Assembly (NCBI RefSeq): GCF_051903065.1
Contig: NZ_CP178438.1
Reading direction: 5' to 3' (one strand)
DNA length: 64,000 bases
From: Escherichia coli
GTDB taxonomy: Bacteria > Pseudomonadota > Gammaproteobacteria > Enterobacterales > Enterobacteriaceae
In this document: positions 9,264 through 12,961 of the stretch, one piece after another
How positions within the stretch are numbered: the first letter of the stretch is position 1
How the letters are laid out: every line of letters begins with the position of its first letter
The notes under the pieces: generated by a model
The model's database searches: none
The model's input: the letters and a program-made list of their open reading frames with translations, nothing else
What the model was told of the DNA's origin: nothing
Position numbers and translations under genes: made by a program

Positions 9264-9335
9264 TGTAGTGGCACACTAAATTTGGCCACCTGATGAAAGG
9301 TGATATTCTCACCACAACACAAAACAGGTGACTTA

Positions 9336-9647
9336 ATGAACAAGAAAACCAAACGAACCTTCACCCCTGAGTTCAGGCTGGAATGTGCACAGCTGATTGT
9401 TGATAAGGGCTACTCATATCGACAGGCCAGTGAAGCGATGAATGTCGGTTCAACCACGCTTGAGAGCTGGGTACGCCAGCTCAGGCGAGAGCGCCAGGGT
9501 ATTACGCCCTCTGCCACACCCATTACTCCAGACCAGCAACGTATCCGCGAGCTGGAAAAGCAAGTTCGCCGTCTGGAGGAACAAAATACGATATTAAAAA
9601 AGGCTACCGCGCTCTTAATGTCCGACTCGCTGAACGGTTCACGATAG
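9336..9647 (+). CDS. IS3-family OrfA (HTH transposase subunit)
   Basis: AGGTG RBS then ATG 9336; ...[29 protein letters not shown] is close to IS911 OrfA; slippery A-AAA-AAG heptamer at 9596-9602. Confidence 0.8.
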
Positions 9648-10034
9648 CCGCCAGACTAAGTGACAGCCACACGGTTGTCAGCCTGTGTTCTGCTCTGGAA
9701 ATACACCGCAGCAGTTACCGGTACTGGCGAAAACGACGCGATACGGTTAATCCGGCACGAGTCAGGTTGTGCAGCGAAATACGCCGGGCGTGGAACCAAA
9801 GTCGGGGCTCTGCGGGCGCGCGCACTCTGGCTGAAATGCTGACCCAAAACGGCGTCCCGATGAGCCGTTATCGTGCCGGACGGCTGATGAAATACCTGAA
9901 CCTGAGCAGTTGTCAGCCCGGAAAACATCAATACAAAAATGCCTGTCAGGAGCATACGTGTTTGCCGAATCTGCTCGAGCGTCAGTTCGCTGTACCGGAG
10001 CCAGACAGGGTATGGTGCGGAGATATTACGTATA
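9596..10034 (+). CDS. IS3-family OrfB (transposase) 5' exon, reached by -1 frameshift, interrupted by the intron
   Basis: -1 frame from the slippery site reads [23 protein letters not shown]...VWCGDITYI and stops being transposase-like exactly at 10034/10035. Confidence 0.7.
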
Positions 10035-12304
10035 GTGTGCCCGGAGTTCAGGGCGGGCATGGATGCTTAAATGAACCGCGAGTCTGTCTGGAATATTGAA
10101 CCGGTAACTCACGATGAGAAACCCAACAATCCCACCGGGTGTGACGGTGGAGAACCTGAGCGGCAGTGACCTGCGGCATGCCCGCAGGGTGATGTAACCC
10201 GCTGACAACGGGGATTGAGGCGAGATCACTAAGCCGAGATGATCCTCAAGGTTAAGTACTGAAAGGCTGAAGAACATGAACCCGTTAATCCGCCTCTGTG
10301 GGTTGAAAACGTCACCACGGCCTACGTGATCTGACAGGCCGTGCAGGAGGAACTGGCAGTAATACGTAAGCACTGCCGGTCGAAGGTGTTTTGACATGTA
10401 TGCGAAACACCGGGGCAGCAGCGTCTATCACGCTTGCGTTGCTGACTTCTGCCAACTTGCGGCAAGCAAGGATAAAGAGTGCGACGGGCAGCCTCCTCAG
10501 TATGCCTGAGTCCAGGCAGGTAAACCGGGGAAGGTCAGCGACGGATGTTAAGGGGGCATGGCTCCGATGACGCGCTGGCTGGCGGAGCTTCCGTAGTAGT
10601 CCGCGATGGGGAAAGCCCATTACATGGCGAAGGGAAGCAGTTTGAATGTGTTTGCGACGTGAATTAACTGACCTAACGAGGTGAAGACCTTTGATAATCA
10701 GCGAAATGCAACGCAAGCTTGCCACATGGGCAGTCACCGATCCGTCCCTACGGATTCAACGGCTGCTGCGTCTGATAACACAACCAGAATGGCTGGCTGA
10801 AGCGGCGCGGATCACGCTTTCATCAAAGGGGGCCCATACCCCCGGCGTTGATGGCGTGAACAAAACAATGCTACAGGCCAGACTGGCTGTTGAGCTGCAA
10901 ATCCTCAGGGATGAATTACTCTCAGGCCACTACCAGCCCTTGCCCGCCAGACGGGTTTACATCCCTAAAAGCAACGGCAAACTGCGACCACTGGGTATCC
11001 CCGCGTTGCGGGATCGTATTGTTCAGCGGGCCATGCTGATGGCGATGGAGCCGATATGGGAGAGTGATTTTCATACGCTCTCATATGGCTTCCGGCCTGA
11101 GCGCAGTGTCCACCACGCTATCCGCACGGTGAAATTACAGCTCACAGACTGTGGTGAAACCCGGGGACGCTGGGTGATTGAAGGCGACCTGTCCAGTTAC
11201 TTCGACACCGTACATCATCGACTGCTGATGAAGGCTGTACGCCGCAGGATCAGTGACGCACGTTTCATGACTCTGCTGTGGAAAACCATCAAGGCGGGAC
11301 ATATCGATGTCGGTCTCTTTCGGGCGGCCAGTGAAGGTGTGCCACAGGGCGGTGTTATATCGCCGCTATTATCGAACATCATGCTGAATGAGTTCGATCA
11401 ATACCTGCATGAGCGCTACCTGAGCGGGAAAGCCAGAAAAGATCGGTGGTACTGGAATAACAGTATCCAACGGGGCCGAAGTACGGCGGTCAGAGAAAAC
11501 TGGCAGTGGAAACCCGCGGTGGCGTACTGCCGCTATGCCGATGATTTTGTCCTCATCGTCAAAGGCACCAAAGCACAGGCGGAAGCCATCAGGGAGGAGT
11601 GTCGGGGTGTGCTCGAAGGCAGTCTGAAACTCAGGCTGAACATGGATAAGACTAAAATCACCCATGTTAATGACGGCTTTATCTTTCTGGGGCACAGGAT
11701 CATTCGCAAACGCAGTCGTTATGGCGAGATGCGAGTGGTCTCAACGATCCCGCAGGAGAAAGCCAGAAACTTCGCCGCATCGCTGACAGCACTGTTATCA
11801 GGCAACTACAGTGAAAGCAAAGTCGATATGGCTGAACAACTCAACCGAAAACTGAAAGGCTGGGCCATGTTCTATCAGTTCGTTGATTTTAAGGCCAAAG
11901 TCTTCAGTTATATCGACCGTGTCGTGTTCTGGAAGCTGGCTCACTGGCTGGCCCGCAAATACCGTACAGGTATCGCTTCCCTGATGAGGTGGTGGTGTAA
12001 ATCACCGAAACCGGGTCAGAGCAAAACGTGGGTTTTATTTGGTAAAACCAATCACGGCAAGCTCAGCGGCGAAATACTGTACCGGTTGGTGGGGCAAGGC
12101 AAGAAGCTGTTCCGCTGGCGGCTACCCGAAGGTAATCCCTATCTGAGGACGGAGACCAGAAACACGTATACATCGCGCTTTACAGAAGTGGCAATGGCGT
12201 TCGCCAGCATTTAAATGGAGAGCCGGATGCGCTGAAAGGTGCACGTCCGGTTCGGGGAGGAGAGGCAGGGAAATAGTCCGACTACGCCCTGCCTCTTACT
12301 CTAC
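10035..12304 (+). mobile_element. Group II intron (with intron-encoded RT/maturase)
   Basis: 5' end GTGTG, 3' end ...CTAC; domain V-like hairpin GAGCCGGATGCGCTGAAAGGTGCACGTCCGGTTC at 12230-12263; removal restores a continuous IS911-like OrfB (…[23 protein letters not shown]…). Confidence 0.8.
10706..12214 (+). CDS. Group II intron reverse transcriptase/maturase
   Basis: RT motifs (…[21 protein letters not shown]…, …[11 protein letters not shown]…) and a C-terminal maturase region; ATG at 10706 (track ORF begins at an alternative start at 10691). Confidence 0.85.
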
Positions 12305-12783
12305 TCTGGGCAGGAAATCGCTGGTGCTATCTGGCGGTCGTCATGGATCTTTTTGCCCGCAGGGTTATCGGCTGGAGCCTGTCAGCGAATGCCGATACTG
12401 CACTGATAAGCAGTGCCTTGCGGATGGCGTATGAGGTGCGTGGTCAGCCGCGGGACGTCATGTTCCATAGCGACCAGGGAAGTCAGTATACAGGACTGAA
12501 ATATCAACAGCTTCTCTGGCGTTACAGGATAAAGCAAAGTGTCAGCAGACGGGGAAACTGCTGGGATAACAGTCCTATGGAACGCTTCTTCCGCAGTCTG
12601 AAAACAGAATGGGTGCCGACGGATGGTTACGTAGGCAAGGACGAGGCCCGGCAACAAATTAGCGGTTATATCCTGAATTATTACAATAGCGTCAGGCCTC
12701 ACCATTACAACGGTGGGTTGACGCCGGAAGAGTCAGAGAACAGATACCGTTTTTACTGTAAAACCGTGGCCAATATTACTTGA
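12305..12783 (+). CDS. IS3-family OrfB (transposase) 3' exon, DDE integrase core
   Basis: …[17 protein letters not shown]…HSDQGSQYT…[15 protein letters not shown]…, an rve-type catalytic domain. Confidence 0.7.
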
Positions 12784-12961
12784 CCACTACACCTTTCTCT
12801 GCCAGCCACTCATTCAGTTCATGTTCCAGAGACAGATTGATAATATCGTAATCGGACCTTGCCATTCCCGTTTCCTTAGCACATGTTTTCAGGCATGGGG
12901 ATAAAGTATAAAGAATGTCGTACTGCCGCTGCCAGAGCAATATTCCCCCCTGCTGGTTGTA

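Follow-up and report, generated by a model that had tools for sequence, protein, structure and literature searches.

An E.c.I4 class A group II intron within the transposase gene of an IS3-family insertion sequence in Escherichia coli

A 64,000-nucleotide (nt) stretch of Escherichia coli DNA (RefSeq assembly GCF_051903065.1, contig NZ_CP178438.1; the whole stretch is hereafter called the window) carries, at positions 9264–12791, an insertion sequence (IS) of the IS3 family whose transposase gene, orfB, is split by a group II intron. The intron is E.c.I4, an already described member of class A, and it lies in one of the homing sites documented for it in IS3-family transposase genes. We identified the intron in the published catalogue, located both of its boundaries, recognized the structural hallmarks of its ribozyme and an intact gene for its protein, and found an allele of the same locus in which the site is empty, together with recurrence of the target in other genomes. 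Almost certainly, a resident chromosomal IS3-family IS was invaded by E.c.I4, presumably through retrohoming, just after the D-I-T-Y codons of orfB. The parts of the composite element are as follows (aa, amino acids).

9264–12791, + strand: IS3-family insertion sequence carrying the intron, delimited by inverted repeats and by uninterrupted, 100% identical copies elsewhere
9264–9289, + strand: left inverted repeat (IRL), TGTAGTGGCACACTAAATTTGGCCAC
9336–9647, + strand: orfA, intact, with an HTH_Tnp_1 domain, 103 aa
9596–9602, + strand: slippery heptamer A AAA AAG inside orfA, for the -1 programmed frameshift to OrfAB
9602–10034, + strand: exon 1 of orfB, in the -1 frame, stopping 1 nt past the D-I-T-Y codons (region of the first DDE aspartate)
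10035–12304, + strand: group II intron E.c.I4, bacterial class A, full length, 2,270 nt, GUGUG...CUAC
10691–12214, + strand: ltrA, in domain IV of the intron, 507 aa from TTG 10691 or 502 aa from ATG 10706 (the RefSeq start, WP_001189123.1)
12305–12783, + strand: exon 2 of orfB, the rest of the rve/DDE domain, beginning TC TGG GCA GGA AAT and ending with the stop codon TGA at 12781–12783
12766–12791, + strand: right inverted repeat (IRR), read as GTGGCCAATATTACTTGACCACTACA, reverse complement TGTAGTGGTCAAGTAATATTGGCCAC

Without the intron the host IS is 1,258 bp long. Its two ends are imperfect repeats, with 20 of 26 positions shared between IRL and the reverse complement of IRR, terminal TGTAGTGG and TG...CA ends. 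Exon 1 closes at 10034 with ...GGA GAT ATT ACG TAT A, the intron follows in the sense orientation of orfB, and the protein reads ...GDITY-I|WAGNRW... across the split. Both intron boundaries are fixed because intron-less alleles join exactly at 10034/12305. The sequence at these points is that of a group II intron, with GUGUG at 10035–10039 corresponding to the 5′ GUGYG and ...CUAC running to 12304 corresponding to the 3′ AY. The Rfam model for domains V/VI (RF00029) matches 12218–12304 with 64.9 bits, against a gathering score of 40 (E 1.7e-10), and this match terminates exactly at the proposed 3′ splice site, 12304. An earlier note, made from the sequence alone, had described an IS3-family element with an intact orfA, an A-AAA-AAG site and terminal repeats, whose orfB was split at ...GDITYI by a 2270-bp insert starting GTGTG, ending CTAC and holding a domain V-like hairpin; each of these points was borne out, the insert measuring exactly 2,270 nt and the hairpin falling at 12220–12253.

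A consensus structure was computed with RNAalifold from the intron, deleted of its open reading frame (ORF), and four relatives, namely an E. coli plasmid copy (91%), a Salmonella plasmid copy (85%), and copies from a Novosphingobium and a Bradyrhizobium plasmid (~67% each). The five sequences gave the expected six-domain group II fold, in which domain IV is present as a stub in the ORF-deleted form. The other domains are listed below.

10040–10529, + strand: domain I, closing helix 10040–10044 with 10525–10529, compensatory changes there and in many internal helices
10534–10583, + strand: domain II, the weakest helix, 77% of cells paired
10587–10638, + strand: domain III, 6 pairs with compensatory changes
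12220–12253, + strand: domain V, a 34-nt hairpin with an AGC triad, a 2-nt AC bulge and a GAAA tetraloop
12256–12302, + strand: domain VI, with a bulged branch-point A at 12298, 7 nt upstream of the 3′ splice site

Compensatory pairs are found in the helices of both domain V and domain VI; domain V contains two of them, and 100% of its cells are paired in the five-sequence consensus. Over the whole fold, compensatory double changes occur at 36 of the 181 pairs, against 5–10 with slid partners and 23 ± 2.7 in column shuffles, with none of 500 shuffles matching the observed value, and 91.6% of cells are paired in the consensus against ~41% in the slid-partner controls, figures that are tempered by the small sample (five sequences from two clades) and by the derivation of the structure from those same sequences. 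A single-sequence minimum-free-energy fold of the ORF-deleted intron recovered domains V and VI and buried the hairpin that bears the probable exon-binding site 1 (EBS1) in long-range pairs, which is why the comparative fold was used instead. The earlier note had proposed folding the intron and comparing it with the bacterial classes; the fold has six domains with covariation, and by sequence identity the intron is E.c.I4 of class A.

The gene in domain IV encodes the ~500-aa reverse transcriptase (RT)/maturase that had been read there before, with RVT_1 (2.2e-34) and GIIM maturase (1.3e-10) domains in Pfam and YADD codons from 11534. No endonuclease domain was found in the intron protein, where only RVT_1 and GIIM appeared even at E ≤ 10, and the protein is therefore one without an endonuclease. 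Class A, which includes E.c.I4 and S.f.I1, is listed among the endonuclease-less classes (Toro and Martinez-Abarca, PMC3552965). We also weighed the alternative that the RT gene belongs to a retron, a diversity-generating retroelement (DGR) or a defence RT system, with the adjoining hairpin there by coincidence. Retron and defence-associated RT (DRT) models do match the protein below threshold (18–54 bits against cutoffs of 200–600), as is expected of any RT, whereas TIGR04416, the curated NCBI model for group II introns, scores 341 bits against a cutoff of 300. With the GIIM maturase domain present, domains V/VI above their Rfam gathering score and the exact splice boundaries confirmed by empty sites, a retron, DGR or DRT identity was rejected, its probability being negligible, and the choice of a group II intron over such systems in the earlier note was sound.

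At the start of the intron protein gene, the block CGAGGTGAAGACCTTTGATAATCAG (10677–10701) shows no variation, not even among the 67% relatives, and includes a Shine-Dalgarno-like GAGGTG and the in-frame TTG at 10691, five codons 5′ of the annotated ATG (10706). The block may be where protein binds and translation is controlled in domain IVa, and the TTG at 10691 may be the true start of the intron protein.

Over its 2,270 nt the intron is 100% identical to positions 12712–14981 of NC_009790.1, plasmid pETEC_74 of strain E24377A, a copy listed as E.c.I4-27 in Table S4 and placed in class A in Table S2 of Leclercq and Cordaux 2012 (PMC3522654); the naming rule of the database puts copies more than 95% identical under one name. 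It is 99.8% identical to the copy in strain IAI39, E.c.I4-10, and the IS–intron junction is the same as that at NC_011750 489783–492052, the exact position of E.c.I4-10. The E.c.I4-27 and E.c.I4-10 copies encode the same protein, WP_001189123.1, and occupy the same IS3-family target position; E.c.I4-10 further shares the host IS and junction found here. What distinguishes the present copy from these is only another chromosomal locus and, against IAI39, an A/G difference at 10361. E.c.I4 is said to have been first described in two 2002 papers by Dai and Zimmerly. Over 17 kb, the chromosome of E. coli GDSC2BY4G matches the window with 100% identity, and on that chromosome RefSeq annotates ltrA (WP_001189123.1) between two pseudogene halves of an ‘IS3 family transposase’. 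This serves as an annotation reminder, as pipelines mark such a split transposase as two pseudogenes and not as one intron-containing gene.

The intron is also common. Copies with 100% identity lie on many E. coli chromosomes and plasmids. It has matches in 2,668 of 5,426 complete E. coli genomes, near-full-length in 1,873, and in 2,186 plasmid records from Escherichia, Klebsiella, Salmonella, Enterobacter, Yersinia and others. Its own 5′ junction, searched with a 240-nt query, recurs in 218 E. coli genomes at many positions, and the intron also occupies the IS629-type sites described below; the earlier note had suggested looking for it in IS911/IS629-type targets of other genomes. A catalogued intron in one of its usual targets, carried by about half of complete E. 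coli genomes, is ordinary and nothing new; the intron, its class, its preference for IS3-family transposases and even this IS–intron junction were published in 2012. The case is useful for calibration, in that a nested mobile element was correctly reconstructed from raw sequence alone.

The history of the locus can be read from alleles that lack the intron. Strain CFSAN064036 carries, at the same chromosomal locus and between the same flanks, the IS without the intron: its locus positions 1–2271 correspond to window 7764–10034 (99.96%), and positions 2263–4203 to window 12296–14260. Presence or absence of the intron at this locus is polymorphic among other strains as well, and at least 17 other E. 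coli genomes contain an unbroken IS that is 100% identical to the conceptually spliced 1,258-bp sequence. An empty-site allele at the same locus means that the intron entered an IS already in place. Against the IAI39 copy, which sits at another locus, between yaeF and proS, with a clean AGA 3-bp direct repeat, the IS exons differ at 45 of 1,258 positions and the intron at 5 of 2,270. With exon divergence so far above intron divergence, the intron is far younger than the IS variants it occupies, and independent homing would be the simplest account of the difference. We infer a retrohoming route in which the intron RNA would have reverse-spliced into the sense strand of orfB, 1 nt past the D-I-T-Y codons, and would then have been copied into DNA by the reverse transcriptase that the intron itself encodes.

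Two other routes deserve consideration. The intron could have been transferred from a different intron-bearing IS copy, through gene conversion or homologous recombination, a process for which there are precedents: Table S2 of PMC3522654 records E.c.I4 copies in chimeric host ISs (IS629/IS911, IS629/ISEc31), and two IS629-type sites share the same 5′ exon with different 3′ exons. For the present copy, however, the exons match intron-less copies of this IS at 100% and are 3.6% apart from the intron-bearing IAI39 copy, whose intron is 99.8% identical; no mosaic pattern was noted among the exon differences from IAI39, and only 13 nt of its flank are in common with the IS629-type sites, which together make such an exchange improbable. 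The second possibility is that the IS arrived already bearing the intron, and that a precise loss of the intron produced the intron-less allele seen elsewhere. Copies of this IS with the intron do exist at many loci, some with intact direct repeats, as with AGA in IAI39. Precise intron loss is rare, however, the intron-less allele at this locus is common to several strains, and the divergence of the intron is far below that of the IS, so that we regard this order of events as very improbable. Retrohoming into a resident IS thus stands as the preferred explanation.

The choice of target fits the habits of this intron lineage, which would use one conserved site in many different IS3-family transposase genes. 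All of the 5′ flanks examined end in GAY-NTN-ACN-TAY-N, that is, in D-x-T-Y codons plus 1 nt, where D is the first aspartate of the DDE triad; the same homing position within IS3-family transposase genes is stated in PMC3522654. An exact-pattern scan with one genome per species returned four matches, all at contig ends, of which three provided extra 5′ flanks. The flanks compared were these.

5′ flank, this window and IAI39: GATATTACGTATA
5′ flank, IS629-type sites: GATTTTACTTACG
5′ flank, Yersinia: GATATCACCTATC
5′ flank, Salmonella: GATATTATCTACA
5′ flanks, Tenebrionibacter, three sites: GACATAACATATA, GACATCACCTACA, GACGTGACTTATA
5′ flank, Bradyrhizobium relative: GACATCACGTATC

One hairpin of the intron carries a loop that could recognize these flanks.

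10353–10379, + strand: hairpin with a 13-nt loop bearing the probable EBS1, CGUAAG (10365–10370)

This CGUAAG pairs at 6 of 6 positions with CUUACG, the intron-binding site 1 (IBS1) of the IS629-type sites. The Yersinia variant shows two compensatory changes: CG is replaced by GA at loop positions 65 and 66, and G and C by C and U at exon positions -1 and -2. Three further results bear on the assignment. At the site in this window (CGUAUA) only 4 of 6 positions pair, namely -2 (as G-U), -3, -4 and -6, with mismatches at -1 and -5; a second possible register, shifted to 10362–10369, pairs with exon positions -2 to -9; and a search for EBS2 that took in AAUAUU at 10092, the loop at 10323–10336 and the segment aligned to Bradyrhizobium GAUGUC gave no candidate that covaried convincingly. 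Two EBS1 registers fit because the target is quasi-repetitive, and we prefer the register 10365–10370 because of the two compensatory changes in the Yersinia variant. On that basis EBS1 is probably CGUAAG at 10365–10370, and A10364 may be the delta nucleotide facing the U at exon position +1. Imperfect exon pairing at this site suggests that reverse and forward splicing may both be inefficient here. The nucleotide at position 10361, in the loop of the probable EBS1, is A here and in the E24377A copy, and G in IAI39 and in more distant variants.

What the insertion means for the host IS depends on splicing. The orfA gene and the frameshift site would be left untouched by the intron. When the exons are joined and the -1 frameshift is applied, the product is a 392-aa OrfAB that scores 357 bits with NF033516 (cutoff 160), and its rve domain (residues 222–319) spans the exon junction at residue 234. 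The unspliced frameshift product stops after 254 aa and lacks the second D and the E of the DDE triad, so that full-length transposase requires precise splicing. In cells, the full 392-aa OrfAB would accordingly be translatable only from precisely spliced mRNA, and unspliced mRNA would yield the truncated 254-aa protein without these two residues. The proposal in the earlier note that transposase can be made only after splicing therefore holds as sequence logic, two of the three DDE residues being absent from the unspliced product; that any splicing takes place at this site is something we infer.

There is a little less than an even chance that the insertion is instead a dead end, in which E.c.I4 ligates the exons to a negligible extent, the IS copy is knocked out and no meaningful coupling exists. 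The EBS1–IBS1 pairing is imperfect, at 4 of 6 positions with a mismatch at -1, and RefSeq treats both halves of orfB as pseudogenes, which likewise counts against a gene restored by splicing. Very inefficient exon ligation has been reported for another, unnamed IS-borne intron (PMC3522654, discussion). Against a dead end, the ribozyme and the protein gene are intact and identical to widespread, evidently mobile copies, the intron lies in the sense orientation inside a transcribed ORF, and the same junction is present in 218 genomes at many positions. The odds that this IS copy is effectively inactivated are roughly even.

Should the intron act as a gate on IS activity, transposase would be made only where splicing, with the intron protein being produced, is successful, and IS activity would be held very low by the weak pairing with the exon. 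Should the lineage, including its ~67% alphaproteobacterial relatives, keep its D-x-T-Y specificity across long distances, it could hop between unrelated IS3 members. These readings are unlikely, and both, if true, would be modest extensions of known behaviour.

A comparable arrangement is found in RmInt1 of Sinorhizobium meliloti, a class D, endonuclease-less intron whose homing site lies inside the transposase gene of ISRm2011-2, and whose splicing and homing have been shown experimentally. RmInt1 is probably the unnamed intron with inefficient ligation mentioned above. It differs from E.c.I4 both in intron class and in the family of its host IS, and no similarity is expected beyond the shared core. 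For E.c.I4 itself, no splicing or homing experiments were found in the literature searched. A much closer relative is S.f.I1 from the SHI-1 island of Shigella flexneri, whose protein is reported to be 99% identical to that of E.c.I4, and which differs in its host genome and IS copy; in 2013 class A had only three known members, S.f.I1 among them (PMC3552965, PMC4244168).

The more distant relatives on Bradyrhizobium japonicum plasmid pUSDA123-1 and Novosphingobium plasmid pABRDHK22 share ~67% nucleotide identity with E.c.I4 in ribozyme and ORF and adopt the same fold with different EBS loops. The Bradyrhizobium relative also lies in an IS3 transposase gene after D-I-T-Y, whereas the Novosphingobium relative is outside any IS. 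On the plasmid of B. japonicum USDA 123 (CP126019.1, locus 4484–4680), domain V is followed directly by GTGTG and a match to the Rfam family group-II-D1D4-4 (105.7 bits); the place expected for domain VI thus seems to hold a nested second group II intron, from a different class. The Novosphingobium copy (NZ_CP039697.1, locus 2315–4554) retains full domains V and VI (70.6 bits with Rfam), has no annotated IS around it and follows GACTTCTCGTACA. This sequence resembles the D-x-T-Y target at the nucleotide level, so the copy may be an ectopic insertion. The 85% copy on the pESI-like plasmid of Salmonella Infantis (NZ_CP103792.1, locus position 2214) starts with GTATA, not GTGTG, and its domain I is marked by a deletion; this copy has probably decayed and is dead for splicing.

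The host IS belongs to the IS3 family, as its orfA and orfB connected by a -1 frameshift, its DDE (rve) domain and its TG...CA terminal repeats indicate, and RefSeq annotates the ‘programmed frameshift’ on an intron-less copy. Within the window, self-comparison detected no second copy of the element. The label ‘IS911-like’ given in the earlier note was right as to family and frameshift heptamer and otherwise only loosely so, RefSeq naming the host transposase ‘IS3 family transposase’ and nothing narrower. Like the host, IS911 and IS629/IS1203 show the layout of orfA, A AAA AAG and orfB, a DDE (rve) domain, TG...CA ends and 3-bp repeats in clean copies. IS629 is excluded as the identity of the host, as IS629-type exons share only 13 nt of flank with it; nor is the host demonstrably IS911. 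The C-terminus of OrfA and the heptamer resemble those of IS911, which we take as a lead and not as a test. The hosts recorded for E.c.I4 in the literature are IS629, IS911, ISEc16 and ISEc31, and the host of E.c.I4-10 is left unnamed in the supplements of the same study (PMC3522654).

A separate observation concerns orfA. The Rfam family RF01387 (‘isrC Hfq binding RNA’) matches window positions 9332–9454 at full length with 150 bits, and also the IAI39 locus at 2918–3040. As this match is the 5′ end of an IS3-family orfA (start codon 9336), the family appears to model an IS fragment and not an independent small RNA gene.

The host IS lacks a 3-bp target-site duplication at this copy, as previously noted: its left flank is TAA and its right flank CCT. 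These unmatched flanks also surround the IS in the intron-less allele of this locus, so loss of the repeat predates the intron and is unrelated to it. Copies or close relatives of the IS do have clean 3-bp repeats (strain 2D, CCA; IAI39, AGA), which shows that the IS ends at 9264 and 12791 are right. The surroundings are listed here.

8010–9262, left of the IS: a frameshifted IS110-family (‘RNA-guided’) transposase pseudogene, then a 170-bp IS3-family fragment abutting IRL
12792–12893, right of the IS: a truncated hypothetical gene

Since the flanks consist of truncated genes and IS fragments, secondary rearrangement is likely, and the absent repeat is likely to reflect an older rearrangement within a nest of ISs. 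More broadly, positions 3000–20000 of the window contain genes for a PDDEXK-like protein, a YadA-like adhesin, an H-NS paralogue and members of the YagK/YfjJ and ECs1377 families, along with fragments of IS1, IS630, IS256 and IS110; the region looks like a horizontally acquired island.

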